Assembly: GCA_014584465.1 (NCBI GenBank)
Contig: JACTMU010000079.1
Coordinates: 8,065-72,064 of the forward strand
DNA: 64,000 bases
Direction: 5' to 3'
From: Pseudomonadota bacterium
Lineage (GTDB): Bacteria > Bdellovibrionota > Bdellovibrionia > Bdellovibrionales > JACTMU01
In this document: positions 35,867-64,000 of the stretch, piece by piece
How the letters are laid out: every line of letters starts with the position of its first letter
Numbering within the stretch: position 1 is the stretch's first letter
Notes under the pieces: generated by a model
Database searches by the model: none
What the model saw: the letters and a program-made list of their open reading frames with translations, nothing else
Told to the model about the DNA's origin: nothing
Position numbers and translations under genes: made by a program

Positions 35867-35962
35867 CCTGTCTCCATCTTGAGTCTTACCAAATGATGGT
35901 TAGAATGAGGAGACCCTAGGCTCCATTGCCGAGCAGGCCATCACACCAACCACCCATCGACT

Positions 35963-36493: not shown

Positions 36494-36543
36494 TCCTGTC
36501 CTATCTGTTGATCTATTGCTTCACACGACTTCCTCTAATAAAA

Positions 36544-36864: not shown

Positions 36865-37042
36865 ATCTACCTCCTAAGGGTAGTTCTATTTCTACCATTG
36901 TATCATAATGAGACAAATCAACCTAACCCTATGGAGTCGCCTAGGCCTTCGTCGGACTCTCCTGCACCCCTTGACTCGTCGTTCGTCACCAGGCCCTCTT
37001 GCTCCAAAAAGCGGCGCGACCCTGGACCTGAAGCTAGGGATG

Positions 37043-37438: not shown

Positions 37439-37685
37439 GATATAAGAAAAAGGGGAGTTGAGTCAAAGCACGTCGTGCGTCCTGCACTACACTCTACAAA
37501 GTTTGTCTGTTGCCAATCCTTGGCCACTCTGTGACGAGATACTTTGTTTCCTGCGAAGAAAGAATGTAAAACCTTCCTTGGCTTTCCGACCATGAACCCA
37601 GCCTCCCCCGGCCTCAACACGTCCTGTGTTGATTTGATACACTTTAATTCTATATTCATTTTTGAATTCTAAGAACTTCTTTTTT
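37439..37685 (-). promoter_or_regulatory. Non-coding spacer between flgI and flgJ that is rich in GGA hairpins. Candidate CsrA-binding leader or sponge RNA.
   Basis: There are seven GGA motifs in 145 nt of the minus-strand RNA (37480..37624), and five are in a CA(N)GGA context. Four sit in the loops of short hairpins. The only ORF here (74 aa) lacks a Shine-Dalgarno sequence. Confidence 0.4.
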
Positions 37686-40452: not shown

Positions 40453-41234
40453 CTCAGGTTGTTCACATTCTGTAACATCTGATCAGCTGCTTGAATGACT
40501 TTGGAATTTGTTTCATAGGCACGCTGAGCTGTGATCATGTTGACCATCTCATCTACGATGTTGACATTGCTCATTTCAAGTTGACCCTGTGCTAAATAAC
40601 CCATTCCATTACTTCCGGGAACACCTTGAGTTGGAAGTCCACTTGCTGTGGTCGGAAGAAAAAGATTCTTTCCAACAGGTTTAAGACCTGCAGGATTCAC
40701 AAAATTGACGATTTCAATCTGACCGATGGTCTGCGGCATTGTATTGGACCCCGTGGTTACGGACACCTCTCCTCCCGGAGAGATGGAGATGCCTGTTGCT
40801 CCCACTGGAATGACAATCTCTGGTTGCATTGGATTTCCATTTCCATCGACAATCCTGCCATTAGGATCCTTCTTAAAGGATCCACTTCGCGTGTAGGCAA
40901 TTTGAAGATCTGGCGTTTGAACAGGAAAGAAACCGTTGCCCTCAATCATAAGATCCAAAGGAGCCTTGGTCTCTTTGGGTGAGCCAATCGAAAAGTCCTG
41001 TTGAATCGCGCTGGTGCGAACCCCTAGGCCCGTTTGAACTCCCGTTGGAGTGATGGTGTTTTCTCCGGTCCGGGCTCCGGGTTCTTTGATGGTCTGATAG
41101 AGTAGATCTTCAAATTCGGCTCTGGCTTTCTTGAATCCGCCGGTCGAGACGTTTGCCATGTTGTTGGCGATGACATCCATGTTGGCCTGTTGTGCCTGCA
41201 TTCCCGTGGCGGCTGTGTTCAGCGACTTAATCAT
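40449..41234 (-). CDS. flgG: Flagellar distal rod protein FlgG
   Basis: N-terminus MIKSLNTAATGMQAQQANMDVIANNMANVSTGGFK and C-terminus MSNVNIVDEMVNMITAQRAYE. Confidence 0.93.
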   Translation of the reverse strand: MIKSLNTAATGMQAQQANMDVIANNMANVSTGGFKKARAEFEDLLYQTIKEPGARTGENTITPTGVQTGLGVRTSAIQQDFSIGSPKETKAPLDLMIEGNGFFPVQTPDLQIAYTRSGSFKKDPNGRIVDGNGNPMQPEIVIPVGATGISISPGGEVSVTTGSNTMPQTIGQIEIVNFVNPAGLKPVGKNLFLPTTASGLPTQGVPGSNGMGYLAQGQLEMSNVNIVDEMVNMITAQRAYETNSKVIQAADQMLQNVNNLR

Positions 41235-41245
41235 ACACTCTCATC

Positions 41246-42058
41246 CTAACCGAGGACTGGCACCTCGTTCACAAGCTTCTCATCGATCTGGTCATACGCC
41301 TTAATGGCCTTCTGGTTGGCTTCAAACGCGCGTGAGGCCTCAATCATTTCGGTCATCTCTTGAATCACGTTCACATTGCTTGTTTCCAAGTAACCTTGAT
41401 GAACTTGATTGTCGTTGGAAACGACCATCTCTGCCCCTATGTCTTCTCTCAAACCATAGAGAGACTGGCCAATCTTTCGAAGTGCATCCTTTCCCGATGC
41501 TTCCACCAAACTTAACTTCCCAATCCGATCGGGACCGCGGAAGATCTCTCCATTGGGCGTTATCGTTAAATTGATGGAATCAACTTTGATTGCACGACTT
41601 GAAGGATCTGCCTGTGCCGATCCATCGGCCAAAACAAGAAAGCCGCCCTTTGTGATCAGCCTCCCTTCGGTGTCAATCGTCAAGGCTCCGTTGCGAGTGT
41701 AACGCACTCCCTGTGGAGTGAGCACCTCAAAGAACCCCTTCCCCTCGATTGCGATGTCAAGTGAGTTCCCCGTCGCCTTCAGACCTCCTTGGGTAAAATC
41801 AGTCGCCGTTCCATTCAGATCCACATAGCCTCGATCTCCGCCTTGCAAATCATAAAAGCTCTCTAGGGAAGCCGTGACTCTGGGAACCACGATCACCTCT
41901 GGAGCCTTCTCTGCAGCGGTGAGATACTCACGAAAAAGCTGCTTGTCTTTCTTAAATCCAGGAGTGTTGACATTGGCAATGTTATTGGCAATCGTATCAA
42001 GACGAGTGTTTTGGGCCATTGCCCCACTCAGAGCTGAATAAATTCCTTTGCTACTCAT
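41246..42058 (-). CDS. flgF: Flagellar proximal rod protein FlgF
   Basis: Rod-protein N-terminus (SGAMAQNTRLDTIANNIANVNTPGFK) and C-terminus (TSNVNVIQEMTEMIEASRAFE), directly upstream of flgG. Confidence 0.85.
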   Translation of the reverse strand: MSSKGIYSALSGAMAQNTRLDTIANNIANVNTPGFKKDKQLFREYLTAAEKAPEVIVVPRVTASLESFYDLQGGDRGYVDLNGTATDFTQGGLKATGNSLDIAIEGKGFFEVLTPQGVRYTRNGALTIDTEGRLITKGGFLVLADGSAQADPSSRAIKVDSINLTITPNGEIFRGPDRIGKLSLVEASGKDALRKIGQSLYGLREDIGAEMVVSNDNQVHQGYLETSNVNVIQEMTEMIEASRAFEANQKAIKAYDQIDEKLVNEVPVLG

Positions 42059-46050: not shown

Positions 46051-46988
46051 TAGAGTTCGACGCGATCATTTTCTTTGAAGGCCGATCCTGAATGCACAAC
46101 CGCAATGGCACCGTCTTGACCAAAATAGGAGATCACTTCGAGAGTTCCCTTCATTCGACCCGGAACCTCTCCGATCAAGAGACCTGTCTCAGGATCGAAG
46201 ACCTCTTCGGACTCTTCGGTCACCTTGAGAAGGTCTCCCACCTGAATTCCCGAAAGTCTACCTGCATTGATGTAGATCTTTTCTCCGCTGACCAGTGCGA
46301 CTCGACCCTCCCAAGAGAGTTTCTCGACGACACGGACAATGTGTGGGACCATCTGTGCAAAGGCTTTCGTCACAACCTGATCCACCAACTGCGGCTCCTC
46401 TTGAAGAACAATTTGATCTAAATCGTGATCGCCAATCCTGACTGTGCTTGACTCTTCTGTGGCCGAACGGTCTTGATTGAGGACCTCCTTGCCATTTTTG
46501 GTCGAAAAGAGGCGAATTCGAACGGTGGTTTGAACTCCCACTTTGATGTTCCTGAATATTCCTACCGGATCCCCAAGTTTTCGAACACTGATCTCCTGAA
46601 CTCTTCCTTCAAGAACAGCTGCAACACCCATTCCGGCTGCAATCTTTGCTATGGATTCAAGATCATATTCTTGATTTGAAACATATTTAGACAAATCTTT
46701 GGGAAAGTCACTGTTTCGAACAATGACAAATTGGCCTGTCCGATGTATGGAGCGAACGACACTCATTCGGGCGACATCGGCTACCTTCTGAGAACGTTTC
46801 ACGTCTGAATTGAGAAAGGGGAGCACCATGATCCTCTTTCTCAGCTGATTGGTGGATCTGGCCTGAAAAGGAATGTCTCGCACTTCGCCCTCAGGACGCT
46901 TCCCTCGACTGAAGAGACTGCACGAAGTGGCGGTAAGTGCCAGTAAAATAGAAAGACCGACTTTCAATCTCATACTAGAAAGTTTCAC
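46047..46988 (-). CDS. Lipoprotein of unknown function
   Basis: Lipobox LALTATSC. The central RIMVLPFLN...GMGVAAVLEGRV stretch resembles periplasmic CsgG/LpoB-like lipoproteins, but only weakly. Its start overlaps the 3' end (stop region) of pilQ. Confidence 0.55.
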   Translation of the reverse strand: MKLSSMRLKVGLSILLALTATSCSLFSRGKRPEGEVRDIPFQARSTNQLRKRIMVLPFLNSDVKRSQKVADVARMSVVRSIHRTGQFVIVRNSDFPKDLSKYVSNQEYDLESIAKIAAGMGVAAVLEGRVQEISVRKLGDPVGIFRNIKVGVQTTVRIRLFSTKNGKEVLNQDRSATEESSTVRIGDHDLDQIVLQEEPQLVDQVVTKAFAQMVPHIVRVVEKLSWEGRVALVSGEKIYINAGRLSGIQVGDLLKVTEESEEVFDPETGLLIGEVPGRMKGTLEVISYFGQDGAIAVVHSGSAFKENDRVELY

Positions 46989-48993
46989 TCTTCAAAAAGG
47001 CCTTGTCTTGATTTAAAATTCGCGGAGTGAGAAAGATCAAGAGCTCATTTTTGTTGTTCGTATCTTCATCCACTCGAAAGATTCGACCTATGATTGGAAT
47101 CTTTGAGAGCCAAGGAACACCAGTTTCACTGGTCGTAACGTCGCTCTGATAGATTCCACCGATGACGGCGGTCTGAGCGTCCTTGACCAAAACCTTTGTC
47201 TTAGCTTGCCTTGAATTCATAGGTCGCGCCTGCGTATCTTTGTCCTGGATCTCCCCTAGAAATTCTCGAACAACATCAATGTCCATCATGACTCCACCAT
47301 CTGGCGTGATCTGTGGTGTGACTTCAAGCTGAAGTTTTGCGGTCTTAAAGGCAACGCTCTTGGTGGTTGTTCCCCCGCTGTCCGTCTGATATTGATAAAG
47401 TGGAATCTCGGTACTTTGACTGATCGTTGCCTTCTCGTTATTAAGTGCGACGACACGAGGTGAGGAGATGAGCTTGACGTTGCCTTCGGTCTCTGACAAC
47501 GCAAGACGTGCGGAAAGATCACCAATCACGTCTAACGTCCCCACATTGAGGAAGAGATCAAGCCCATCGGACTTCACAGCGGGTCCAACATTCAAACTCG
47601 AAGTGAATGCCGCCGAATTCCCCATGTCGACTTGAAATCCACTGTTGCTCCACTGAATTCCCACAGACTTCTTGAAGTTCTCCTGAGCCTCGACAACCTT
47701 ACCTTCAATTAACACTTGAGCTGGCGGAGTGTCTAAGTATTTGATGAGTTTGGTGACCCGCTCAATCGTCTCAGCTGTATCCTTCACAATGAGAGATGCG
47801 GAACGGGCGTCTGCCGAAACGGTTCCACGACCTGTCGTAAGAAGTGGCTGAACCTGGGTCGCCATATCCTTGACTTGAGTGTAGCTGATGGGAATGATCT
47901 TCACGACCAACTTTTCAAGCTTCTCTTGTGAATCCACAATTCTTTGAGCCTCTTCCGTTTCTCGTCGAATGGCCTCAAGTGGGGCAATACGGATCACAGA
48001 TCCTTGTCGTACATATCCGAGGTTTTTCGAACGCATGACCACCACCAAGGCCTGATCCCATGGAATGTCTCGCAATTTCAATGTGATCGTGCCCTTGATT
48101 TCATCCGCCAAGACGATGTTGGCACCACTTTGCTCAGCGATCATGTTGACCACATCTGCAATCTCAACCTCTTTCACCTGAATTGAGATCTTCTTTCCGT
48201 AGAAGCGGGTTTGACTGGTCAAAAATTCATCCAAAGTCCTTGGTGCAAAGGGTTCCTCCACTCTTGCAGCACCGGATGCTCCATTGATGTCCGAAGCTCC
48301 TCCACCACCCTGGGCGAGACTCTGACTTTGGATTCCTATCCCCGTAAGATCTCCCGTCGCCGACACGTAGATCGTCGTGCCTTCCTGACGAACTTTAGGC
48401 TCAATGCCAGGTTGAACTTGCAAAACCACCTTAGCACCCTTGGATTCAAGACTCTGATAGGCACGGATCCCGTCGATCTTTCCACCAAACTCCTTAGTGA
48501 TGTAGGGGCGCTGAAACTTTTGTGGAACTGACGTCGCTTCCAGTTCTACGATGAACTGCTTTCGTTCAGGCACTCTACGCGTTGTGTACTTCACTTCGCG
48601 GTCCGTTCGAATGACCACCGTTCCTGAGCCAACCTTGGATTGATATTGAAGATCCACAACTTGTCGATCCAGGACTGAAGGGGTTGAAATGCCCGACTTG
48701 GTCTGGCCACGCTTTGAAGTTTGTGACTCAAACTCCTCATCTTGATTAAAAAATTCATCACCGCCGGCTTCTTCGTCTCCACCAAAGTTCTCGTCATCGG
48801 CCCCATTGGACGCCGTTTCACCATCATTGGCATCACCGTCGAACGAATCGTCATCGCCTTCAAACTCAGCAATATCCTCCTCGCCCATCCCCGATTCATC
48901 TTGTGTACCTTGATTCGAAGCGCACGAGCCCGTAAGAATCGATCCTGCAAAAAGCAGACAGATAATAAATATTTTCATGAATAGTTCCCCCAC
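46975..48993 (-). CDS. pilQ: Type IV pilus secretin PilQ
   Basis: Acidic N-terminal region, an AMIN-like domain, secretin N domains and the C-terminal secretin core (VPWLSKIPIIGRIF...NELLIFLTPRIL). The start is probably the MKIFIICLL ATG at 48978. Confidence 0.92.
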   Translation of the reverse strand: MGELFMKIFIICLLFAGSILTGSCASNQGTQDESGMGEEDIAEFEGDDDSFDGDANDGETASNGADDENFGGDEEAGGDEFFNQDEEFESQTSKRGQTKSGISTPSVLDRQVVDLQYQSKVGSGTVVIRTDREVKYTTRRVPERKQFIVELEATSVPQKFQRPYITKEFGGKIDGIRAYQSLESKGAKVVLQVQPGIEPKVRQEGTTIYVSATGDLTGIGIQSQSLAQGGGGASDINGASGAARVEEPFAPRTLDEFLTSQTRFYGKKISIQVKEVEIADVVNMIAEQSGANIVLADEIKGTITLKLRDIPWDQALVVVMRSKNLGYVRQGSVIRIAPLEAIRRETEEAQRIVDSQEKLEKLVVKIIPISYTQVKDMATQVQPLLTTGRGTVSADARSASLIVKDTAETIERVTKLIKYLDTPPAQVLIEGKVVEAQENFKKSVGIQWSNSGFQVDMGNSAAFTSSLNVGPAVKSDGLDLFLNVGTLDVIGDLSARLALSETEGNVKLISSPRVVALNNEKATISQSTEIPLYQYQTDSGGTTTKSVAFKTAKLQLEVTPQITPDGGVMMDIDVVREFLGEIQDKDTQARPMNSRQAKTKVLVKDAQTAVIGGIYQSDVTTSETGVPWLSKIPIIGRIFRVDEDTNNKNELLIFLTPRILNQDKAFLKSETF

Positions 48994-48997
48994 TTCC

Positions 48998-49576
48998 CTA
49001 CTGTGAAATCTGCATGACTCGGGTTACAAAGGAGACCTTTCGGTCCGCCATGAACTCCTCAACCACAACAATCTCTCCTTCTCGGATGACCGCAATGTAG
49101 CCATTGTTACGCCCCATCCTTTGACTTACCCCGACCAGATGAATCCCACCCGAAGGATCCTTGATCATCGCCTGAGGCTTTGAGACGTCCCAAAGAATGC
49201 CAATAAGTATCAGCTGCGACAGATTGAAATTCTCAAGAGGATGATGATCCCCCTCTTCCTCAACGATTTTGACGTACGGAGAAAAGGGGTCTCGTCTCCC
49301 ACGAGGATCGTAATGAAAGGGTTCCATGAAATTGCGTGGCAAATAGGAACTTATGATCTGATCTAAGCCCTCACCCTCAGCATTGGACATATCCGGGATC
49401 ATCTCCTCTTCCGTAACGCCCTTTGCCTCCTCGATCTCTTTCTCAACATTGCCACCAGAACCCTGGGCCGCAACGAACGACGAGTTCAAAACGATCTTGA
49501 AAAATAAGATCAGTGCTCCTCGTATCGATGATCGTGAAATGATCATGGAATGTCTCCCGTCGCCGAAACCATCCAA
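48998..49576 (-). CDS. pilP: Type IV pilus assembly protein PilP
   Basis: It lies between pilO and pilQ. RDPF motif (RGRRDPFSPY) and a C-terminal beta domain. Confidence 0.75.
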   Translation of the reverse strand: MDGFGDGRHSMIISRSSIRGALILFFKIVLNSSFVAAQGSGGNVEKEIEEAKGVTEEEMIPDMSNAEGEGLDQIISSYLPRNFMEPFHYDPRGRRDPFSPYVKIVEEEGDHHPLENFNLSQLILIGILWDVSKPQAMIKDPSGGIHLVGVSQRMGRNNGYIAVIREGEIVVVEEFMADRKVSFVTRVMQISQ

Positions 49577-49607
49577 GAGTTCCCTATCTTGGCCAGAATC
49601 TCCTTTC

Positions 49608-50234
49608 TCAATGAGTTCCTCCTTGAGCTGTTGGGTCTTTATTTACAGGAACGCTTGGTTCAACATATCGATAACCTGCCACCGTCGAAGTAAATCCTAA
49701 AATTGGCGGCAAAGCCGTTCCCTGTTTAACCTTGTACGCCATCTTGGTGACATTGACGATGCGACGAACTCGTGAAATATTTGCAAGAAACATTGCAAGC
49801 TCCACAAATGTTCCCTCAAGCTCGATATTGACCGTGAGCTCCTCGTATCCATCTGAATTGTTGAGCTTTACTCCCTCTTTGTTTGGTTCCAACTTTATGA
49901 TATTGGTTCCCGAAGCTTTTGCTTCATTGGAAATGGTTCTCATAAGTTCCGCAATGCTGAATTCATTGGGCATGAAGTTTAGAGCTTTCCTGTATTGAGC
50001 TCCCATCTGAGAGATCTCTTCCTGGTACTTTTCTCGATTGGCAATCTGACTCTTGATCTGATTGAGCCGATTTTTTTTTGTTTGAAGTTCTGCCTGAGTT
50101 GCCTGAATTCGACCTTCGATGGCCGACCCATCATTGTAAAACATAAAAAAGTAGAGAACGGCGACGATAACACCTATTCCAGCGGCAACTCCTCGAGTGA
50201 GATTGTTGATCTCTTGAAGCACCTTCTCCATCAA
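49608..50234 (-). CDS. pilO: Type IV pilus assembly protein PilO
   Basis: Single transmembrane segment, coiled coil and ferredoxin-like C-terminus, in pilN-pilO-pilP order. Confidence 0.8.
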   Translation of the reverse strand: MMEKVLQEINNLTRGVAAGIGVIVAVLYFFMFYNDGSAIEGRIQATQAELQTKKNRLNQIKSQIANREKYQEEISQMGAQYRKALNFMPNEFSIAELMRTISNEAKASGTNIIKLEPNKEGVKLNNSDGYEELTVNIELEGTFVELAMFLANISRVRRIVNVTKMAYKVKQGTALPPILGFTSTVAGYRYVEPSVPVNKDPTAQGGTH

Positions 50235-50842
50235 CCCTTCTCCAAAACGAAAATAATCTCAAATCGTTTGATTACACCTGTGTTCGTTTTCACTTCTACA
50301 GCACTGGTCAGCACCACATCAGAGAAGTAGACATTGTCTTCAATTCCCTTGACAAAGTCGAGAATGGCATTGTCCTCCGTTGAATCGCCTTTCAATTTGA
50401 CGTTCTTGCCCTCAAAGGTCACCTCGGTGAACCAAACTTTCTCCGGAAGCAAAGTTTGAAGAGTATCGACGGCCTGCACGTAGGAGGTTCTTTTTTCTGC
50501 AAGTTTGCCAATGATTTCAAACTTTTTAATTAGACTCTCTCTTTCCTTGATGAACTGTTCCACCTCTGCTACCAGAGAACCAAGCTTACCAATCTCTACG
50601 TCATACTCGGCCTTCTGTTTGGTAAGGACACTCAACTCATCTTCCCTTTGCATGATGTGAAGAAATTCATATCCAACAAGAATCACCATAAAGCTCACTA
50701 TCAAACCGATCTTGATCGAGAGCTCTTTTTGATCCAGAGGCCCTGATGCCGACTTCATTGAGCCAAACAAGGAAAATTTCTTCTTAGCCAAGGAACCATG
50801 GGCGGAGGCTCCAATATTCTTAAGTAGATTGACTGTGATCAT
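50231..50842 (-). CDS. pilN: Type IV pilus assembly protein PilN
   Basis: MITVNLL N-terminus, one transmembrane segment, and 4-nt overlaps with both pilM and pilO. Confidence 0.8.
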   Translation of the reverse strand: MITVNLLKNIGASAHGSLAKKKFSLFGSMKSASGPLDQKELSIKIGLIVSFMVILVGYEFLHIMQREDELSVLTKQKAEYDVEIGKLGSLVAEVEQFIKERESLIKKFEIIGKLAEKRTSYVQAVDTLQTLLPEKVWFTEVTFEGKNVKLKGDSTEDNAILDFVKGIEDNVYFSDVVLTSAVEVKTNTGVIKRFEIIFVLEKG

Positions 50843-51885
50843 TCAGGCTTCCTTAGAGCAAGTCCTATCGCAACAGGAGCGTAGTTACGAATTCTCTCAA
50901 GATGTTCCAACGAAAACTTGTTACGATCGACGGCGATCTTTTCAAAGGGGTCCATGAGTTCATACGGGATGCTCAAGGTCTGACTGATCTGCTCCAACAG
51001 ACCCGGAACAAACGCGCCCCCCCCAGTAAAATAAATTCTTGAAAGTGATCCTTCCGCGGCGGTCGCACCGTAAAAGTCAAACCCGTGCTGAATCTCTTCA
51101 CTGATCGACTCACTCACTGAAGAGATAATGCTGTGAACCTCTTGAGGCACCTCCTGATTTTGAACCGCACTGATCTTAAGGGCTTCAGCTTCCTCAAGAC
51201 TGATGCCAAGATCCTTATTGATCTCTAAAGTGTAGTTCATTCCACCAACTGAAATGTCTCGACTGAAAACAACATTGCCATGCTCTACAATCACAAAGTT
51301 GGTCGTTGTTGCTCCAATGTTGATCAAAGCCACGATCTCAGACTTACGTTTCCCATAGTTAAACTCAAAGCAGTTTGCCAGGGCAAACCCCGTGACATCC
51401 ACAATATTTGTTGTAAGATCCGCCGCCACCATCGTTTCGACGTATCGAAATACAAAATCCTGCCGAGCGGCCACAAGAAGGACATCGATCCCATCACGAC
51501 TGCTCCCAGAACTGATGATATGATACTGGAGGTTGATCTCATCAAGCCCAAGTGGAATGTACTGCTCGGCCTCCCACTTGACCTGCTCTGCAATCAACGC
51601 TGAATCAATGGGTGGCATGCTGATTTTTTTGACAATGACGGAGGTTCCCCACATACCCGTTGCAACATGACCGCGCTTGATCTGCAATCGGTCAACCAGG
51701 GAACGAATGGCTTCTCCCAAAGATTCAGGCTCAACAATTTCACCACCCGATATGGAATTGGGCGGAGTTGGAGCAAATCCAAAGTTAAGAAGTTTGGCTT
51801 CCTTCTTACCTACATCCAGTTCCGCAAGTTTGATCGAACTGGAACCGATGTCGAGGCCAAGAAGTTTTTTTGATTTAAAAAACAT
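50839..51885 (-). CDS. pilM: Type IV pilus assembly ATPase-fold protein PilM
   Basis: The start is taken at MFFKSKKLLGLDIGSSSIKLAEL. Actin-like fold motifs are present (DIGATTTN, GGGA). Confidence 0.9.
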   Translation of the reverse strand: MFFKSKKLLGLDIGSSSIKLAELDVGKKEAKLLNFGFAPTPPNSISGGEIVEPESLGEAIRSLVDRLQIKRGHVATGMWGTSVIVKKISMPPIDSALIAEQVKWEAEQYIPLGLDEINLQYHIISSGSSRDGIDVLLVAARQDFVFRYVETMVAADLTTNIVDVTGFALANCFEFNYGKRKSEIVALINIGATTTNFVIVEHGNVVFSRDISVGGMNYTLEINKDLGISLEEAEALKISAVQNQEVPQEVHSIISSVSESISEEIQHGFDFYGATAAEGSLSRIYFTGGGAFVPGLLEQISQTLSIPYELMDPFEKIAVDRNKFSLEHLERIRNYAPVAIGLALRKPE

Positions 51886-52008
51886 CGCTCGGAAGCCCCC
51901 TCCTCCATGAAGGTCTAAAGATTTCATGCTGCAGCACGAGTATCGACCTGAGGATTAACCCTTAGGTCTACACTGGCTTTAGTCTATCACCATAATTAAC
52001 TTAGACAA

Positions 52009-52953
52009 TCATGGACCCAGAGTTTCAGGACTTGGGGTGAGGTAACGTAGATCACCGACAAAAAAACTCCAATACCAATCTGCGACCTCATGCCCGACAA
52101 AGAGATAAACCAGAGCCCCAAACACCAAATAGGGGCCAAATGGGATTGCAACCTTAAGCCCGCCTTTCGTCTTGATCGCAAAAAAAAGACCCACAAAACT
52201 TCCAAACACGCTTGAAACCAAGATCACAAACGGGATGCTCGGCGCTCCAAGAACTGCACCAATCCAAGCCAAAAGCTTGATGTCGCCTCCGCCCATCCCC
52301 TCCTCTTTTCGAACAAGCCAGTAGAGGTAGGCCGTAAGCCAAAGAAAACCACCGCCTAGAAGAACGCCCAACAGAGCGCTCAAGAACTCTCGTTCCGGAT
52401 TCAATAGGGCGCCCATCAATCCCATCACAATGCCCGAGAGCGTGAAAAGATCTGGCAAAATCATGTGGTCAAAGTCAATGAAGGTCACCACCACGAGTCC
52501 AAAAATAAAGATCTCAGCCTCCAAAAGAGACCAACTCCAACCCAACTTCAAAAAAGCAGCCATAAAGAGAGTTGCCGTCAAAAGCTCCACAAAGGGGTAA
52601 CGAAAGGAAAACGATCCCCCGCACTCGCGACACTTTCCACGAAGAATGAACCAGGAAAAGATCGGAATGTTGTCAAACCATCGGACCGCCTTACCACAAT
52701 GGTTGCACCGACTGCCCGGCACGATGCTCTCTTTTTTAGGAAGCCTTAAAATCAAAACATTTCCAAAACTTCCAAAAATCGCGCCAAGAATAAAGAAAAA
52801 GATGGTAAAGATGGAATCGAGATCAGACAAAATCTTTCCTCTCAAAGAGAAATCCTGTAAGTGAAAGGACGATGACCAACCACAGTCCGGCATGAATCGT
52901 CGACCAAGCCATCTCAGACCACGGAACAAGGTCTCCATAGGCCACAAGATCAC
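52009..52953 (-). CDS. pilD: Prepilin peptidase / N-methyltransferase PilD (A24 family)
   Basis: GSFGNVLILRLP, CNHCGK...RGKCRECG, GGGDIKLL. The ORF overlaps the upstream gene by 131 nt. A TTG at 52830 with GAGG upstream is a plausible true start. Confidence 0.88.
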   Translation of the reverse strand: MILWPMETLFRGLRWLGRRFMPDCGWSSSFHLQDFSLRGKILSDLDSIFTIFFFILGAIFGSFGNVLILRLPKKESIVPGSRCNHCGKAVRWFDNIPIFSWFILRGKCRECGGSFSFRYPFVELLTATLFMAAFLKLGWSWSLLEAEIFIFGLVVVTFIDFDHMILPDLFTLSGIVMGLMGALLNPEREFLSALLGVLLGGGFLWLTAYLYWLVRKEEGMGGGDIKLLAWIGAVLGAPSIPFVILVSSVFGSFVGLFFAIKTKGGLKVAIPFGPYLVFGALVYLFVGHEVADWYWSFFVGDLRYLTPSPETLGP

Positions 52954-56339: not shown

Positions 56340-57626
56340 TTACCACGATCCGGTCGACCCAGCTACGCTGCGGGATGTTCGCTTCGGACGTGAACCGTAT
56401 GAGCTGGGTGAGGAGCGATTCGAACCAGACCTTTGTTCTGGGACTCTTTTACGCAAAGGGCGCTTGCCACTTCGTCTTCTCTTTGCACCCGGCAGCGCCG
56501 ATCTCATCCCTTCACCGATAAGAGCATCAGGAATATCATACTTTCTCACGAGATTGTTCCAGGCACGACACTCCTGCAAAGTCACAAAACTTACAGCTTC
56601 GCCTAGGGCACCATTACGTGCCGTACGACCCACACGGTGAACGTAGTCCTCATCGAACATCGGTAAGTCAAAGTTTATTATGTGTTCCACGTGGGGCACA
56701 TCGATGCCACGTGCAGCGACGTCCGTTGCGCAGAGAATTCGAGTTTCACCACTCTTAAAGGCCTTGAGTGCGCGATCCCTTTGCCCCTGCGTCCGTCCAC
56801 CATGTATGAGGTCTGCAGCAAAGCCATACTCCACCAAATGCTTTTTGAGTCGTTCCGTGCGAGATTTGGTCTTTAAAAAAACAATGACGGACCCTTTACG
56901 GCTATTGAGTTCATCCACAATGCGGTCAGCTTTGTTCTCCAATTCAACCCTCACAACAAACTGTTTGACCGTCGAAACGGGTCGAGATTCATCAAGCAAG
57001 AGCGAAAGTGGATTGTTCAGATATTTCTGAGCAAGACCCGTGACTTTCTTGTCCAACGTCGCCGTGAAAAACGACGTTTGTCTTTCACTGGGCAGATATT
57101 TGAGAATCTGTTCAAGCTGAGGCGCAAATCCCATATCAATCATGCGATCACCCTCATCAAGAACGAGATGGCCCACATTGTGGATCTGAACAGTGTTTCG
57201 TTTTAAGTGATCAATGAGCCGTCCCGGCGTGGCCACAATGATTCTGGGTCTACGCTGAAGGGATTTGAACTGTTTCCGAATGTCCTGCCCGCCAATCAAT
57301 TGGGCCGAGTAGAGGTCTTTCGGATCGGCAACCAGAGAGCGCAAAAACTCCGTGATTTGCTGGGCCAGTTCACGTGTTGGCACCAACACCAGTCCCTGCG
57401 ATTTGGGATCTTTAAGGAGTTTTACGATCATAGGGATCAAATAGGCTCCTGTTTTCCCAGAGCCGGTTTCCGCACGGGCCATAAGATCACGCCCTTCCAG
57501 CAAGAGCGGGATTGCCTTCTTCTGAATTTCGGTGGGATGGATGAAATTTACTTTCTCAAGGCCTCGCACAAGAAGCTGAGGAAGATCGAGCTCTACAAAA
57601 CTTTGCATAGGGAAGTTCCTTTTCAA
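56340..57626 (-). CDS. DEAD-box-family ATP-dependent RNA helicase (RhlE-like) with a variant DEGD motif II
   Basis: Q-motif PTEIQ, motif I AETGSGKT, PTRELA, motif II LVLDEGDRM, ATDVAARGIDV, HRVGRTAR, and a basic C-terminal tail. Confidence 0.9.
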   Translation of the reverse strand: MKRNFPMQSFVELDLPQLLVRGLEKVNFIHPTEIQKKAIPLLLEGRDLMARAETGSGKTGAYLIPMIVKLLKDPKSQGLVLVPTRELAQQITEFLRSLVADPKDLYSAQLIGGQDIRKQFKSLQRRPRIIVATPGRLIDHLKRNTVQIHNVGHLVLDEGDRMIDMGFAPQLEQILKYLPSERQTSFFTATLDKKVTGLAQKYLNNPLSLLLDESRPVSTVKQFVVRVELENKADRIVDELNSRKGSVIVFLKTKSRTERLKKHLVEYGFAADLIHGGRTQGQRDRALKAFKSGETRILCATDVAARGIDVPHVEHIINFDLPMFDEDYVHRVGRTARNGALGEAVSFVTLQECRAWNNLVRKYDIPDALIGEGMRSALPGAKRRRSGKRPLRKRVPEQRSGSNRSSPSSYGSRPKRTSRSVAGSTGSW

Positions 57627-57834: not shown

Positions 57835-60800
57835 CTACTTTCCACTTATGGAGTATGCCCACACGGTCACTCCCGATACAACCCCATCTGTGAAGATGCA
57901 GGGCTGAAGAAGAGCTCCTTCACCCTGAAATGAACCCATATTGGGCGCATAGATGCAGGCCTCACCACTTTCGCACAGGGAGTTGTTGTTTCCGATCTGA
58001 TCCCCATTGATTTCGATGGCATGAAGTAAGAATGTCTTTGAAGCCATGGTCGTAGAATCGCTCCCACTCACTCCGTCTGGACAGCTGCTCCCAGAGGTAA
58101 AGGTCGCGTTGGACGCAGTTCCAGTGACACTGCGATTGTGGAGTGGCTTTCCCGTAACCACACGCCAGTCCCAAATGCGACATGTACCCGAGATGCAAGG
58201 ACCTTGATGGGACGAATTTGGAAAAGTTAGCCCATCCATCCCAAACCCCCTAAAAAACGAGTCAAAGTTCATCCAATCCACAATTGAAGCGTAGGAGGAC
58301 GTGCCGGCCGGTGCGCTCCCGTTTGTTGTGTCCGAACTTACCTTGCCTAGAAAAGTTGACGAGAGATCTGTTGCAATCGTTGTGACCGATCCAGAAGCAC
58401 ACGCAGTGTCCAATCCGCCACCACTGCAACCATTTGCAGTGCTTCCTTTGTGAAAGAATCCAGTGAAGCTCACCGACTGACTGCCACTTAGATCCACCGC
58501 AAAGGAGCCGTGATTGGCTGAGACCGTATCATGGAAGACATTGCCGGTACCACCACCGCCTGTGGGCGACTGAATTCCCTTATCCGTGTTCATAGTCACC
58601 AGCGAGTGAACATAGGTCCCATTCACACTCCCCGAAAGGTAGATCCCATTGTAGGTGTTGTTCACGGCCGTCACATATTGGATGATGTTGTCGGTCAACG
58701 ATGTGGTCCCATCGAGGAAAATTCCCGCATCGCTACCCCCAAACAGCGTTGCCTGACTTATGATGTTGCCCGAAGAAGCAATATAAATCGCCGAACTGGC
58801 ATTTGCACTGACTGCAACCTTTATATTTGAGATCGTGAGACCCGAGAGCATGTTGTTGGGGCCTAAGACCTTTAGACCATGGCTCGAACTGCCTGCATTC
58901 ATCTGAGACAGGCGAACCTCTTCCAAACGATTGAAGCTAGAGGAACCCGTGAGCATAAGAAGCGTCTGGCTTATCGAACTTAAATCAGTATTTCTACTCA
59001 CCGAAAAATCGTGCAAGATATTTTTACTGCCTGAAACTCGAGCCCCTCCCATCTTTCCCACACCCTCCGCATTTGATGATGTGATCAGATTCGAGTTGGA
59101 TAAGTAGCCGGTGGTACCCAGTTCAATGGCTGCCATTGAGTTGCTATTGTTCTTGAGATCCTTGATTATGACTTTATGAAGCCGACTGAATTTGGTCCCT
59201 ACGAGATTCATTCCAACCACAAGAGGCCAGGTCCCATTCGTCCCGTTGATCTGCGTTTCCAACCACAAGAAGTTTTGATTGGCCGAACAGATCATCTCTG
59301 CCAGCGCCGAGGAACTCGCGTAACAATCGCCCGATGCAAAGTTGTTGGTCGTCGCACCTGTTGATCGAAGGATCCCACCCCCAAGCGAGACCACTGCAAC
59401 ACGGTGAGCTGAAATCTTAATTCCCAGAGTCGTAAGTCCACCTGGTGGAACGAAGTAGATTGTTCCCGCACTGTTAAGATCGGTAAGACTTGAAGGGTTT
59501 GCTCCGAGAGCGGAGATAGGATTTGTCCACCAACACGTTGGAACACTCTGTCCCACGACGTTTCCACCCTGGTGAATCGTCACGCTGTTCGTCTTCCATG
59601 TGCCTCCACTTGCAATCAGATCGCCAAGTCCAACACCTGGCTTCAAGCCCTTTGAAAAGAAGGTCGCTGTTCCTGAGACATCTTCACAAAACCAATCCAA
59701 CGCATTCAAACTCTCAACCAGTGTGAGACCTGAGCAAGATTCAAAACCTGCCACCTCCACCATACGTTTTTCACCACCATGAATGCAGCCATTGATTTCT
59801 CCATAGTATCCGACCTCGGTCCCATCACAAGAGGCATTGGGTTGTTCGTGAACCTCGCTGTTTGAATCTGTGAATCTTACATAACTATTCCAATCACTAT
59901 TCCCGACATAAACTGGCTCAACCAGAACCGTTACAGGAGCGCTCACCACCAAATCGTGGTTCGCCCCAAGGGAGCCAGCACCCGACACTGCCGGTAAAAT
60001 CAAATTTGCACTGTTGCCAGCATGGTCCACCAGGGTCCCCGAGAGGGCGAGCGAACCCGAAGTCAGGTAATCAAGATCTGAGGAAAATTCCCCCTCTGCG
60101 ATCGTGTATTGAAAAGTGAGTGTACTGGAGCCAGACCCTGAAACGTAGGAGGCAGCTCCTGAAGAGTTGAGTGCCAAGATCATCGATCCACTTAAGGTCA
60201 CATCTTCACTGAAATGCACGTTGATCTCGATGTCATTTCCTGCTCCGTAAGTGCCATCGGAATTGGTCGACGTGACCTGTGTGACGGTCGGTGCTGTGGA
60301 GTCGTAGGTTCTCAACAGCGGATCAGATGCGAGATTTCCATTCCCCGCCAGGTCGACCAACATCGCCTCGGCAACAGAAATGCTCACACTTCCCTCAGAC
60401 GTTGGCGTTACAACTGCCGCAAATGAAGTATGGTCTGTGGTCGTCAGCGAACTCAACGTCCCACCAACCGCAGTGAGGTCACTTAGTGAAAAGCCACTCA
60501 CCTCTTCGGACGCCACAATGGAAATGGCAAAAGACCCATTGACCGCAGAGTCGCTGGTGGAACTCAAAGAGAGAGTGGGGGCCGTCGTATCAAGAACGTA
60601 GATCGCAACCGAAGAGCTGCAGGTTGAACTCCCATGATCGTTGGATTGCCTGCCACTAAAGAGATGAGACCCCTCAGACAACGAGGAGATGTTAAATAGA
60701 ACCGAAGCCCCTGATGCGACTTGCGTGCCGATTTCGGTTTCACATCCACCACCTAGATAGAGGTGGACTGTGTCTCCTTGAGAGACACCATTGACCTGAA

Positions 60801-61827
60801 TCGTAGGACTCACGACGTAATTTGGAGAAGTTGAAGGAGAATAGAGCACCACCGAAGTTGGCGGGGTAGGCGGAGCAGATGCCGTGGGTGGATTGGGATC
60901 AGGTGCCGGAGGTGATGTCTCAGGAATTTCACTCGAATCATCATCAACAATGTCAATCAAAACTGAACTTGTAAGGAGTCGAGAATTGATCGTATTTGAA
61001 AAAACGACACTGAAAGATTCCAAAGCTTCTGCCACGAGGTCATCCACAAGAGAAATTGAGATCTGTTTCAAAGTTTCCCCAGGGGCAAAATCAAGTTGCC
61101 CTGAACCACTCAAGAAATCAGATGAAGCAATGGCGGTTCCATCCACACTCTTCCATCCAATGGATACCACCGACGAACTCACCCGGTCCAGAGCCACACT
61201 TAAAATGACATTTCCAGTTTCACCTGACGGTTGTTCTAAAACAGAAATCGAGACCTGTGGCAACACTTCATGGTCAGAAATGCCAAATTGAAGCCAGTTA
61301 CAGTCATCAAGAATCTTCGAACCCACGATCGACGCCGTAATATCCACAGATTGGTCTGCAGCTCGAACATCCACAGTTGCCTCTCCCACCACCACTGGGG
61401 CCGAGAGATCTGTTCGGTCCATCTTTCCAGGGGCACAACGATAGTTGGCCGAGGTCCCTTGGCCTATAAGCACAATGCGTCGTCGATCCCCTGAAGTGAC
61501 TTCTAAAGAGACTGTCTCCCCTGAGAAATGGGGACCAGAGATCACTTCGGGCTTTAGATGGACAGCACCTTGAATATCCAAACAAGAACCTTTCGAAGCT
61601 TCTGGATACTCAACCGCGACCAGCCAGCAACGAATCTCCTCCATACCTTGAGGCGCAACGACGCCCCACTTTGACTTTGTGGAGGACTGAAGGCGTCGAA
61701 TCTTTTGATCGTTGGTACGAGCAATCTGATCGGGAAGTCGAATGGAAATGGTTGACGAGGTCTCCTTCTTTTGGCAGGAGACAATCCCTACAAACAAAAC
61801 AAGTCCCAATAGAGCGCGTGTCACCAA
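57835..61827 (-). CDS. Giant secreted surface protein: Calx-beta, Ig-like repeats and a beta-helix region
   Basis: 1330 aa with a signal peptide. The Calx-beta-like segment reads SVDGTAIASSDFLSGSGQLDFAPGETLKQISISLVDD. It also has a Pro-rich linker, Ig-like repeats (AGN.N...) and a Ser/Gly/Asn-rich beta-helix-like C-terminal half. Confidence 0.8.
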   Translation of the reverse strand: MVTRALLGLVLFVGIVSCQKKETSSTISIRLPDQIARTNDQKIRRLQSSTKSKWGVVAPQGMEEIRCWLVAVEYPEASKGSCLDIQGAVHLKPEVISGPHFSGETVSLEVTSGDRRRIVLIGQGTSANYRCAPGKMDRTDLSAPVVVGEATVDVRAADQSVDITASIVGSKILDDCNWLQFGISDHEVLPQVSISVLEQPSGETGNVILSVALDRVSSSVVSIGWKSVDGTAIASSDFLSGSGQLDFAPGETLKQISISLVDDLVAEALESFSVVFSNTINSRLLTSSVLIDIVDDDSSEIPETSPPAPDPNPPTASAPPTPPTSVVLYSPSTSPNYVVSPTIQVNGVSQGDTVHLYLGGGCETEIGTQVASGASVLFNISSLSEGSHLFSGRQSNDHGSSTCSSSVAIYVLDTTAPTLSLSSTSDSAVNGSFAISIVASEEVSGFSLSDLTAVGGTLSSLTTTDHTSFAAVVTPTSEGSVSISVAEAMLVDLAGNGNLASDPLLRTYDSTAPTVTQVTSTNSDGTYGAGNDIEINVHFSEDVTLSGSMILALNSSGAASYVSGSGSSTLTFQYTIAEGEFSSDLDYLTSGSLALSGTLVDHAGNSANLILPAVSGAGSLGANHDLVVSAPVTVLVEPVYVGNSDWNSYVRFTDSNSEVHEQPNASCDGTEVGYYGEINGCIHGGEKRMVEVAGFESCSGLTLVESLNALDWFCEDVSGTATFFSKGLKPGVGLGDLIASGGTWKTNSVTIHQGGNVVGQSVPTCWWTNPISALGANPSSLTDLNSAGTIYFVPPGGLTTLGIKISAHRVAVVSLGGGILRSTGATTNNFASGDCYASSSALAEMICSANQNFLWLETQINGTNGTWPLVVGMNLVGTKFSRLHKVIIKDLKNNSNSMAAIELGTTGYLSNSNLITSSNAEGVGKMGGARVSGSKNILHDFSVSRNTDLSSISQTLLMLTGSSSFNRLEEVRLSQMNAGSSSHGLKVLGPNNMLSGLTISNIKVAVSANASSAIYIASSGNIISQATLFGGSDAGIFLDGTTSLTDNIIQYVTAVNNTYNGIYLSGSVNGTYVHSLVTMNTDKGIQSPTGGGGTGNVFHDTVSANHGSFAVDLSGSQSVSFTGFFHKGSTANGCSGGGLDTACASGSVTTIATDLSSTFLGKVSSDTTNGSAPAGTSSYASIVDWMNFDSFFRGFGMDGLTFPNSSHQGPCISGTCRIWDWRVVTGKPLHNRSVTGTASNATFTSGSSCPDGVSGSDSTTMASKTFLLHAIEINGDQIGNNNSLCESGEACIYAPNMGSFQGEGALLQPCIFTDGVVSGVTVWAYSISGK

Positions 61828-62223
61828 ACATTCCCCTTTTCAGTTATCTTCTCTACGTCTTATCGGAAAGTCTTGCGGTTCTGAAGATCACTTGGAAAAA
61901 TATCTTTTGAGAGTTCTCAAAACGTGTCACGACTTGAATCAATCTGACTCAAGGACCCAATCGTTCCTTTTAGGATTCCATCCAACACTCAACTAAACCT
62001 AGAATCGCGCTCCATTCAATCATCCATTCTTGGTTCAAAATTGATGGCCATGTTGTCTCAGAAAGAGAACCCACACAAAGGAAGCATCGGCAAATCCACA
62101 GTAGGCTGGTTTGAAGGTGGTTGGCACCTGGATCCGAAAATCCTCTCTTTGGGAATTCGTCCTAGATTTTGGACCGACGATTCGTAGAAATGTTCTCTAA
62201 ATGGAATTGAGGCGTTAAATTAG

Positions 62224-62239
62224 TGGCACCGTATTTGCT
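62224..62239 (+). promoter_or_regulatory. Sigma-54 (-24/-12) promoter upstream of the heptapeptide ORF
   Basis: TGGCACCGTATTTGCT is an exact TGGCAC-N5-TTGC match. It lies about 50 nt upstream of the ATG at 62288. Confidence 0.6.
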
Positions 62240-62287
62240 TGAAGCTCATCGTTCGTTCAAACCGGGCGACGTTGCTTAGGAGGCACT

Positions 62288-62311
62288 ATGAACTCAACAG
62301 CACGCAATTAG
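62288..62311 (+). CDS. mccA: Microcin C-like heptapeptide precursor, MNSTARN
   Basis: ATG AAC TCA ACA GCA CGC AAT TAG, preceded by AGGAGG (62278..62283, 4-nt spacer). The peptide ends in Asn, as E. coli MccA (MRTGNAN) does. The ORF sits directly upstream of an MccB-like gene and is too short for the ORF track. Confidence 0.7.
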   Translation: MNSTARN

Positions 62312-62317
62312 ATGTAT

Positions 62318-62361
62318 TGGGAGCTTGAGTCCAGCAAAGGATCGATCAAGCTCCCATTTTT
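62318..62361 (+). terminator. Intrinsic terminator / attenuator between the heptapeptide ORF and the mccB-like gene
   Basis: TGGGAGCTTGA-N17-TCAAGCTCCCA forms a perfect 11-bp stem followed by TTTTT. It starts 7 nt after the TAG. Confidence 0.8.
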
Positions 62362-62444
62362 GAGGGACTCTGTTTCCAAAAGAGAAAACTGCAAGACCCA
62401 ACCATGTGGCATTTGCTTGCCAATACCGACGAGGGGGATGATCT

Positions 62445-63518
62445 ATGGATAAGCATAAAGTACTTCAACTGGCCAGGTACGTCCGATCTGGTGTTCAAAA
62501 CGGCATACTCTATTTTGGATTTGGATCCGTTCAACAAGCCATCCGTTGTCCAGAAATGCAACTTCAGGTTGCTGAAGTGGCCAAGCGTTGGGTGACCCCC
62601 TCTACGATCCTAGAGATCCAGAATCATCTGAGTGACTTAGGTGATTCCAAAGATTACAAACCCGCAATCGACTTCTTGATTGAACATGATTTTGTGAAGC
62701 CGGTCGAGTTTTTTGACCAATCTCACAGGTTCAGCCGTAGCCACCTGTTCTATTCAATGTACAAGGGAAACCCTCTTGAAATACAACGAATGATCTCTGA
62801 CAAATCCGTTGCGATCTTAGGATGTGGAGGAATTGGCAATATTGTGAGTGTCAATTTGGCAACCGCTGGGATCAATCGACTCATTCTAGTTGATCACGAC
62901 GAGATCGAGCTTTCGAATTTGTCAAGACAGATATTGTTCGTCGAAGACGACGTGGCAAAGAAAAAGGTGGATGTATTAAGTCATGAGCTAAGACGCCGTA
63001 ATTCTCAATTAGAAATCACCACCCAGTGTTCTCAAATTTCAACTTATGAAGATATTGAAAAGATAGGCCACCCCGACTTGATTGTTCTCAGTGCAGATGC
63101 GGGAGATATCTTCAATATTGTCAACCACTACGCTCTAAAGAACAACATTCCTTATCTTAATGTCGGTTATGTAGAGGATATCGCTGTGTTCGGACCATTT
63201 GTCATTCCAGGAGTGACAGGCTGTATGTTCTGTCAGGATACAACAGCAACAGTTGATGAGAGTGGTCACAATCCACTCACACCCTATCTAAAGCACATCA
63301 ACGAAAGCTATCAAGCCCCGTCCGTTGGGCCCGTCAACATGCTTGCTTCCTCATTAGCCACCTTGGATATTCTAAAGTATTTTGGAAAATTTGGCTCTAT
63401 TCTGTCGCAAAATCGCCGTGTCGGACTTTGGAGTCACGATCTACACTTTGAGTATCAGGATTACCAACGCAATCCAGAATGCAGGCAATGTGGCTTTCTT
63501 AACAATACAACAAGGTAA
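62445..63518 (+). CDS. mccB: MccB-like peptide C-terminal adenylyltransferase (ThiF/MoeB E1-like with an N-terminal peptide-clamp domain)
   Basis: 357 aa. Nucleotide-binding VAILGCGGIGNIVSVNLATAGINRLILVDHDEIELSNLSRQILF. Zinc CxxC pairs GCMFCQ and ECRQCG. YLNVGYVEDIAVFGPF, and an N-terminal extension of about 115 aa that ThiF and MoeB lack. Confidence 0.85.
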   Translation: MDKHKVLQLARYVRSGVQNGILYFGFGSVQQAIRCPEMQLQVAEVAKRWVTPSTILEIQNHLSDLGDSKDYKPAIDFLIEHDFVKPVEFFDQSHRFSRSHLFYSMYKGNPLEIQRMISDKSVAILGCGGIGNIVSVNLATAGINRLILVDHDEIELSNLSRQILFVEDDVAKKKVDVLSHELRRRNSQLEITTQCSQISTYEDIEKIGHPDLIVLSADAGDIFNIVNHYALKNNIPYLNVGYVEDIAVFGPFVIPGVTGCMFCQDTTATVDESGHNPLTPYLKHINESYQAPSVGPVNMLASSLATLDILKYFGKFGSILSQNRRVGLWSHDLHFEYQDYQRNPECRQCGFLNNTTR

Positions 63519-63530
63519 AGGTCGGCGGCA

Positions 63531-64000
63531 ATGAAAACAGTCCATCAGATTGTAAGACGATACTATTGTGTTAGCGCTCTCTTTGAGATGGCGAGAATGG
63601 GAATAGGGGCCACAAGTGTTCTCTTTATGCTCCATCATAATGTTACACTTTCAGATCTTGCATCCATCAAGATGATACAATGCTTTACCATGCTCATCGC
63701 GGAAATGCCTACCGGTCTATTCGCAGATGCATTTGGCCGAAAGAAGAGTATTGTATTGGCAAGTGTTTGCTCGCTACTTTCATTCACAATGTATTTACAA
63801 GCATCTGGATTTTCTGGCTTTTGTATCGCTGACATCTTCAATGCACTTGCGATATCTTTTTGGTCCGGAGCTTTTGATGCTCACGCCATCGAAACACTTG
63901 ACCAAAAGGGAGTCCCTCGGTCATTCTTAAACGTCTTCTTTTCTAGGGTGGCGAGCTATGACGCTGTAGGGGTCATGGTGGGCGGATTCGTTGGAGGCAT
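63531..64000 (+). CDS. MFS transporter, partial (runs off the window). Candidate MccC-like exporter / immunity protein.
   Basis: Manual translation from the ATG at 63531 stays open to the window end: MKTVHQIVRRYYCVSALFEMARMG...MPTGLFADAFGRKKSIVLA (MFS motif A-like), with successive transmembrane segments. Confidence 0.7.
   Translation, partial: MKTVHQIVRRYYCVSALFEMARMGIGATSVLFMLHHNVTLSDLASIKMIQCFTMLIAEMPTGLFADAFGRKKSIVLASVCSLLSFTMYLQASGFSGFCIADIFNALAISFWSGAFDAHAIETLDQKGVPRSFLNVFFSRVASYDAVGVMVGGFVGG

Follow-up and report, generated by a model that had tools for sequence, protein, structure and literature searches.

The closest described counterparts of the locus reported here, which lies at the end of a 64-kb stretch of contig JACTMU010000079.1 (the window, i.e., the whole stretch of DNA analyzed) from an uncultured Bdellovibrionales-related bacterium, are the microcin C7 cluster of Escherichia coli (mccABCDE plus mccF) and the smaller mccABC operons related to it. 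In these systems, a 7-codon open reading frame (ORF) is translated reiteratively and at a high level (PMC6495379), and termination at a hairpin between mccA and mccB leaves mccA mRNA in excess in E. coli and Helicobacter pylori (PMC4231749). MccB then consumes two ATP as it turns the N-formylated heptapeptide's C-terminal Asn into a phosphoramidate-linked adenosine monophosphate (AMP) (PMC6385645, PMC12250964), and the compound is imported by target cells, processed by proteolysis and inhibits aspartyl-tRNA synthetase (AspRS) (PMC4010828). The genes mccD, mccE and mccF do not define the minimal cluster (PMC4010828), and in vitro adenylation of the cognate peptide has been observed for the enzymes of the minimal mccABC clusters of H. 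pylori, Streptococcus thermophilus, Lactobacillus johnsonii and Bartonella washoensis (Bantysh et al. 2014, PMC4010828). Across many phyla, minimal clusters of the mccABC kind whose precursor has 7 codons have been described and in part validated (PMC4010828; PMC6495379 Table S1). In particular, a 2019 survey gave precursors for dozens of genera, with a strong Shine-Dalgarno sequence, an invariant terminal Asn and a conserved length of 7, the peptides being otherwise unconserved save for Met1 (PMC6495379).

We consider it highly probable that the locus in the window is a minimal, chromosomal mccABC-type, or microcin C (McC)-like, operon for a peptide that is ribosomally synthesized and modified post-translationally (RiPP). 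The initial annotation of this DNA had listed a Shine-Dalgarno sequence, a 7-codon ORF, a hairpin, an E1-like gene and a major facilitator superfamily (MFS) gene, and all of them are present, with the earlier coordinates right to within 1-2 bases:

62278..62283, + strand: Shine-Dalgarno sequence AGGAGG, read directly, 4 nt ahead of the mccA ATG
62288..62311, + strand: mccA-like precursor gene of 7 codons plus TAG, encoding MNSTARN, read directly
62318..62361, + strand: intrinsic-terminator-like hairpin (62318-62356) and T-run TTTTT (62357-62361) between mccA and mccB, from fold prediction
62445..63518, + strand: mccB-like gene for a 357-aa E1/ThiF-type nucleotidyltransferase with an N-terminal peptide-clamp domain (RiPP recognition element, RRE), from sequence, structure and tree
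63531..64000, + strand: mccC-like MFS exporter gene, of which the N-terminal 156 codons lie within the window, from similarity to MFS genes beside MccB homologs and to E. coli MccC

As in E. coli microcin C7, the genes stand in the order A-B-C, the precursor is a 7-codon, Asn-terminal ORF behind a strong Shine-Dalgarno sequence, a hairpin separates A from B, the MccB match is full-length with the same predicted fold, and the MFS pump lies directly downstream. By contrast, mccD, mccE and mccF are not in the window (tblastn with the E. coli proteins returned no homolog at E <= 1), so neither aminopropyl decoration (MccD, N-terminal domain of MccE) nor acetyltransferase or peptidase immunity (C-terminal domain of MccE, MccF) is visible; the cluster is chromosomal, among flagellar and type IV pilus genes, whereas that of E. 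coli is on a plasmid; and the two peptides are unrelated save for Met1 and Asn7. The validated minimal operons are likewise made up of three genes with an Asn-ending heptapeptide and without D/E/F, but the present one belongs to a Bdellovibrionota-like host phylum, has another peptide and is a predicted operon. Its enzyme is closer to the MccB proteins of E. coli (230 bits) and Bartonella than to that of H. pylori (94 bits), and it scores 58 bits with a ThiF-like homolog from Staphylococcus.

The precursor ORF reads ATG AAC TCA ACA GCA CGC AAT TAG and has no longer in-frame start; mccB begins 133 nt past its stop codon, and the MFS gene begins 12 nt past that of mccB. Under a strict definition (7 codons, a terminal Asn, and a Shine-Dalgarno core located 4-14 nt upstream), the 64-kb window has no other such ORF on its two strands. 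Homologous loci came from among the matches listed in a genome scan that used a profile of 27 sequences, from the contigs of the three closest homologs, and from the E. coli plasmid pMccC7-H22. An ORF fitting the strict definition is located <=300 nt upstream of mccB in 11 of the 14 homologous loci, and nowhere else in those loci, ~400 kb with the two strands summed, does one occur. Of the three exceptions, two have Asn-terminal ORFs of 8 and 12 codons, and one has a weaker Shine-Dalgarno sequence. The three closest MccB homologs, P0002 (60% identity, locus L083), P0003 (51%, L082) and P0015 from an Oligoflexales metagenome-assembled genome (MAG; 47%, L084), carry MNASVKN, MNASLKN and MNGFSSN, respectively, with an MFS gene next in each locus. 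Further positional equivalents are MNTVPGN, MNTISKN (Parachlamydiaceae HS-T3), MNSVVRN, MNDQSWN, MRKYVHN, METEIGN, MLKLGGN and MDHTEYN (Bartonella), and the E. coli peptide MRTGNAN was recovered as a positive control. The equivalent mini-ORFs also have a strong Shine-Dalgarno sequence ahead of them, and in Nocardiopsis the known MNDDGNN/VNDDGNN gene is encoded on the other strand, a short way downstream of mccB. The expectation of the initial annotation that a 7-codon, Asn-terminal ORF would be conserved upstream of the homologs is thus borne out in position, length, Shine-Dalgarno sequence and terminal Asn, and so is its remark that gene callers do not see such an ORF, which is absent from the called-gene lists of the homologous contigs. 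Because it is unique in the window, and its counterparts stand upstream of mccB and nowhere else in the homologous loci, the mini-ORF is not a chance occurrence.

One of these counterparts adds to a published record: the MNTISKN ORF of Parachlamydiaceae bacterium HS-T3 (BBPT01000001.1; L002, 9921-9944) is preceded by a Shine-Dalgarno sequence and lies 57 nt upstream of the mccB tblastn match, and Table S1 of the 2019 survey lists the HS-T3 MccB (WP_052469479.1) without a precursor peptide (PMC6495379).

A second small ORF in the mccA-mccB spacer was considered as a translational-coupling bridge and rejected. This 46-codon ORF (62312-62452, + strand) opens with an ATG flush against the stop codon of mccA (TAGATG), runs across the terminator and overlaps the first 8 nt of mccB, but L083, L084 and E. 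coli have no conserved counterpart. It is probably a chance frame, as an open frame of this size arises by chance in an estimated one spacer in three.

The hairpin at 62318-62356 is built of an outer stem of 11 bp (UGGGAGCUUGA/UCAAGCUCCCA) and 4 pairs inside it, and is followed by TTTTT. In its 101-nt context, the predicted minimum free energy is -32.1 kcal/mol and that of the centroid -27.3, with z = -2.7 against dinucleotide shuffles. Most homologous loci, and E. coli, likewise have a stable hairpin 3' of mccA, and in E. coli and H. pylori the counterpart works as a terminator under ribosome control (PMC4231749). By analogy, we infer that the hairpin and T-run act as an A-B terminator that sets the transcript ratio. 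A generic promoter/terminator scan did not pick up the hairpin, probably because its inner loops do not fit a simple pattern of a stem with a 3-8-nt loop, and an Rfam scan of 61700-62500 returned on it only sub-threshold matches to plant miRNA precursors, which are noise.

The 357-aa protein is, as judged from sequence comparisons and a structure model, a full-length MccB homolog. In a HMMER search against solved structures, the three best matches were E. coli MccB entries (E = 6.5e-75, 256 bits), with residues 9-350 of the query aligned to residues 8-350 of the chain, the N-terminal peptide clamp included. PaaA, ThiF, eukaryotic E1s and MoeB followed at 1e-14 to 1e-13 over the adenylation domain only, with 53-57 bits for PaaA, ThiF and MoeB (56.8 bits, in a partial alignment, for PaaA). 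The E. coli MccB motifs that the initial annotation had listed match residue by residue in the HMMER alignment. The identity to E. coli MccB is 38.5% (BLAST, full length; E about 1e-65 to 1e-75), and in the reciprocal search E. coli MccB matched this ORF only in the window (E = 7e-75). Pfam reports ThiF at residues 112-346 only, which leaves an N-terminal extension of ~110 aa, where MccB-type enzymes have a peptide clamp of about 90-110 aa. The NCBIfam equivalog models for ThiF/MoeB were missed by a wide gap (TIGR02356, 92.7 bits vs. a cut-off of 275; TIGR02355, 74.2 vs. 376.6), and no MccB-specific NCBIfam model was returned for the protein. An AlphaFold model built on 27 homologs has a mean predicted local distance difference test score (pLDDT) of 91.4; its first 24 Foldseek matches in the PDB are all MccB chains, with template-modeling (TM) scores of 0.84-0.93 over ~350 columns, and TM scores are 0.87-0.90 for MccB, against 0.72 for PaaA (20% identity) and ~0.55 for ThiF/MoeB.

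In a neighbor-joining (NJ) tree (100 bootstraps), for which the PaaA, MoeB and ThiF genes came from annotated plasmids where the expected partner gene accompanies each of them, the window protein falls into one clade with the MccB proteins of E. coli and Bartonella at 100% bootstrap. This clade leaves out the H. pylori and Borrelia MccB proteins, the Staphylococcus ThiF-like protein, PaaA, MoeB and ThiF. The placement with MccB rather than with ThiF or MoeB, which the initial annotation had put forward, therefore holds in both the alignment scores and the tree. That annotation had also named clustering with MoeB/ThiF or a ThiS/MoaD-type partner as signs that it was wrong, and neither was found: no ThiS/MoaD partner, small ubiquitin-like ORF or thiamine/molybdenum cofactor (Moco) gene is nearby in the window, whereas the MoeB locus used for comparison has an adjacent MoaD/ThiS gene. 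PaaA (of pantocin A biosynthesis), ThiF and MoeB share the E1-like Rossmann adenylation domain with the window enzyme, and PaaA also has an N-terminal RRE (PMC12250964); however, they share only 20-24% identity with it, work with other partners (PaaP/PaaB or ThiS/MoaD) and perform other chemistry. The Pantoea PaaA locus has a TauD-like gene of the PaaB dioxygenase type, and there is none beside the window enzyme.

At the residue level, the alignment of 27 sequences shows no variation in the nucleotide-binding loop GCGGIG, the Mg/ATP residue D218, the zinc-binding CxxC pairs C260/C263 and C346/C349, or G27. The residues corresponding to G23 (here Gly27), S212 (Ser216), D214 (Asp218), V240 and I243 of E. 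coli are conserved; among the MccB residues with described roles, Gly23, Val240 and Ile243 form the N-formyl (fMet) pocket (PMC6385645).

The public names of homologs in the MccB clade vary, and include "ThiF family adenylyltransferase", "molybdopterin-synthase adenylyltransferase", "TOMM precursor leader peptide-binding protein" and [quoted passage not shown]. A metagenome scan yielded distant ThiF proteins only. In one homolog, P0088 (597 aa), MccB is joined to a Peptidase_S51 domain (PF03575). Peptidases of the S51 type have been reported as a McC resistance determinant (PMC9239234), and P0088 looks, from its domains, like a biosynthesis-immunity fusion.

For the visible 156 aa of the transporter, the Pfam MFS_1 and NCBIfam MFS efflux matches are below the cut-off, as the protein is truncated at the end of the window. 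Its identity to the genes directly downstream of mccB in L083, L082 and L084 is 60, 48 and 43%, next to 60, 51 and 47% for MccB in the same loci, which indicates co-divergence, and it shares 27.5% identity with E. coli MccC (E = 4e-14). The Oligoflexales MAG shows the minimal arrangement, with A, B and the MFS gene only and then a gene on the opposite strand. The pump named in the initial annotation is thus the same MFS protein that accompanies MccB homologs elsewhere.

A number of observations weigh against a functional minimal operon. The spacer between the Shine-Dalgarno sequence and the ATG is short (4 nt), and the generic scan picked up no sigma-70-like promoter upstream of mccA. In the clamp, Tyr14 and Glu26 of E. 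coli MccB, which contact Arg2 of MccA (PMC6385645), are replaced by Gln18 and Gln30; such a change is what one would expect with Asn instead of Arg as the second residue of the peptide, although the covariation between MccA residue 2 and the MccB position equivalent to Glu26 shows no clean pattern, with Gln, Arg and Ile each occurring together with Asn2. No MccE/MccF immunity gene was detected in the window by tblastn, and no HIT/MccH-type or S51 peptidase domain was found among the ~40 window ORFs scanned with Pfam. Lastly, when the protein database was queried with the 156 aa of the MFS fragment, no full-length identical match came back, though those for MccB (P0001) and the helicase (P0121) of the same contig did, and the MFS pump may accordingly be truncated at the contig end or be a pseudogene.

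Several of these points feed the best-surviving alternative, namely that the cluster is a horizontally acquired remnant that is unproductive (with a truncated or pseudogenized exporter, or as a silent operon) and has no antibiotic role in this organism. Besides the missing exporter entry, the unpredicted promoter and the lack of a visible dedicated immunity gene, this explanation could draw on the patchy spread of the cluster over unrelated phyla (among the matches listed) and on the GC content of the last 2 kb, 44.6% vs. ~48% for the window. This GC content is only mildly low and within the range of the other 2-kb bins, and is no evidence for or against recent transfer. A contig end at or close to window position 64000 would account for the missing entry equally well, the choice being between that and a gene not annotated as an intact protein; partial genes are frequently left out of database records. 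Moreover, mccA and its Shine-Dalgarno sequence are intact, as are the terminator and mccB, which is full-length and retains every invariant residue of the family, the visible part of the MFS gene is an open frame well conserved with its orthologs, and validated minimal mccABC operons likewise lack immunity genes (PMC4010828). We therefore regard a defunct remnant as unlikely, and prefer a working mccABC-type operon.

The product of such an operon would most likely be fMNSTARN-AMP, an AspRS inhibitor. The gene content is observed, whereas the following steps are modeled on the systems characterized in E. coli, H. pylori and Bartonella. Transcription of mccA would be driven by a promoter within the 460 nt upstream of it, and the strong Shine-Dalgarno sequence and 7-codon ORF would yield abundant fMet-Asn-Ser-Thr-Ala-Arg-Asn. 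The hairpin and U-tract (62318-62361) would stop most transcripts, so that mccA mRNA would far exceed the read-through mccB-mccC message. An MccB homodimer would clamp the formylated heptapeptide in its N-terminal domain and, with two ATP, convert the C-terminal Asn via a succinimide to an isoasparaginyl-N-P-AMP phosphoramidate. The resulting fMNSTARN-AMP has a predicted monoisotopic mass of 1149.40 Da (MH+ 1150.41), from the same arithmetic that reproduces the published E. coli values of 1,091 and 1,119 Da (PMC4010828). The MFS pump would export the product, export being the only visible self-protection. In a target cell, an oligopeptide transporter would import the compound, and degradation by deformylase and aminopeptidases would free a non-hydrolyzable aspartyl-adenylate mimic that blocks AspRS.

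The initial annotation had left the nucleotide as AMP or cytidine monophosphate (CMP); the microcin C-type cluster stands, while AMP appears much more likely than CMP, given the lack of a methyltransferase domain, the 7-aa precursor and the grouping with adenylating enzymes. An enzyme that attaches CMP or another nucleoside monophosphate, as for the peptidyl-cytidylates of Bacillus amyloliquefaciens and Yersinia pseudotuberculosis, would belong to the same type of cluster. With the tools used, the sequence does not reveal which nucleotide is attached, the family includes both classes (PMC12250964), and a stand-alone carboxymethyltransferase or MccS could lie past window position 64000. However, most cytidine-class clusters fuse a methyltransferase domain to MccB and have an MccS homolog (PMC12250964), whereas the 357-aa enzyme is made up of the ThiF domain and the clamp alone, with no C-terminal methyltransferase domain in the Pfam scan. 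It is also far closer in bit score to the adenylating E. coli MccB than to the Staphylococcus ThiF-like homolog. Validated cytidine-class precursors are also longer than 7 aa (PMC6495379 Table S1), and 19-aa precursors accompany the Staphylococcus MccB homologs in the survey (PMC6495379). The clade with 100% bootstrap unites the window enzyme with E. coli and Bartonella MccB, and the E. coli and B. washoensis enzymes are validated as adenylating (PMC4010828), while the closest homologous loci hold only A, B and the MFS gene. Attachment of CMP is thus decidedly unlikely, and AMP is preferred.

The weakest alternative, a ThiF/MoeB sulfur-carrier enzyme or another ThiF-like RiPP enzyme (PaaA-like, or thiolactone- or indolylamide-forming) next to a chance mini-ORF, could appeal to the Pfam label "ThiF" and to the ThiF, molybdopterin-synthase and TOMM leader-binding names of public homologs, but it is scarcely credible in view of the equivalog scores (74-93 bits vs. 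cut-offs of 275-376), the lower bit and TM scores of PaaA, ThiF and MoeB, their separation in the tree, the lack of adjacent ThiS/MoaD, PaaP/PaaB-type or YcaO genes, where real MoeB and PaaA loci have such partners, and a mini-ORF that is conserved across loci with zero background.

Precursors with Asn as the second residue (Met-Asn-x4-Asn) recur all through the MccB subclade nearest to the window protein, which has 99% bootstrap support in the NJ tree and takes in Nocardiopsis and Salinactinospora. The loci are those of the window (62288-62311), L083 (205-228), L082 (6369-6392), L084 (7922-7945), L001 (6615-6638), L002 (9921-9944), L006 (464-487) and L007 (3735-3758), together with the Nocardiopsis loci L003-L017. 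In precursors that accompany more distant MccB proteins, position 2 is Arg, Asp, Glu or Leu. Clamp recognition, fMet retention and second-codon effects on translation are candidate causes of the recurrence. The predicted clusters of Nocardiopsis, Thermobifida and Murinocardiopsis (MNDDGNN, MNGDGSN; Table S1 of Zukher et al. 2019, PMC6495379) share Met-Asn at positions 1-2, Asn7 and the same subclade with the window locus, but the Nocardiopsis mccA arrangement described above is unlike that of the window, those peptides are acidic, and some of these clusters carry a HIT-type MccH (PMC7157772), a type not seen among the window ORFs scanned.

The subclade spans Bdellovibrionales-like bacteria, Oligoflexales, Chlamydiae, Alphaproteobacteria, Planctomycetota and Nocardiopsis. 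A bolder reading, which we regard as doubtful, is that it represents a distinct, widely transferred Met-Asn-x4-Asn sub-family of McC-like cassettes, in which Asn2 would reflect a different recognition by the clamp or importer, and that a predatory Bdellovibrionales host would use its compound on prey or rival predators, with export as the sole self-protection. If true, use by a predator against prey or rivals would be an ecological role undescribed for McC-like compounds.

The remainder of the window is chromosomal DNA with the following features, assigned by domain scans unless another basis is given:

5176-5931, 7937-8659 and 20304-21017: several PilZ-domain proteins
16741-20144, - strand: three tandem flagellin paralogs
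33349-42058, - strand: flgF/G/A/H/I and flgK/L block
46975-52953, - strand: pilMNOPQ and prepilin peptidase
56343-57626: DEAD-box helicase, best named relatives at 65-72% identity, labeled "MAG: Bdellovibrionales bacterium"
57835-61827, - strand: 1330-aa Calx-beta/bacterial Ig-like (Big_12) protein with a long C-terminal region without an assigned domain, divergent from the mcc cluster

This gene content fits a motile, type IV pilus-bearing, Bdellovibrionales-like organism. The 1330-aa neighbor had been termed a predation-type surface protein in the initial annotation, and nothing ties it functionally to the mcc cluster.

Since the locus shows all of the family traits that can be assessed in silico, it belongs to the known microcin C-like family of "Trojan-horse" antibiotics. 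It had earlier been suggested that such a cluster in a Bdellovibrio-like genome would be new; this was overstated, as minimal mccABC clusters are catalogued in many phyla and an mcc-like cluster has already been studied in another predatory lineage, the myxobacterium Hyalangium minutum (PMC7157772). Table S1 of the 2019 survey (PMC6495379) has no Bdellovibrionota/Oligoflexia entry and no MNSTARN, and in the library searched just one paper mentions both microcin C and Bdellovibrio, a Vibrio study unrelated to such clusters. The locus is therefore a new peptide and a new host lineage in a known family, not a new type of system.

The understanding of the mechanism is unchanged by this locus, the minimal ABC set, the 7-codon rule and the A-B terminator having been established already. 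What the analysis has flagged is a real antibiotic biosynthetic cassette, even though its precursor gene is missed by gene callers and its enzyme goes publicly under ThiF family, MoeB or TOMM leader-binding names. It supplies a new, directly synthesizable heptapeptide, fMNSTARN, together with its cognate enzyme, and it extends the range of McC-like systems to Bdellovibrionales-like and Oligoflexales bacteria.

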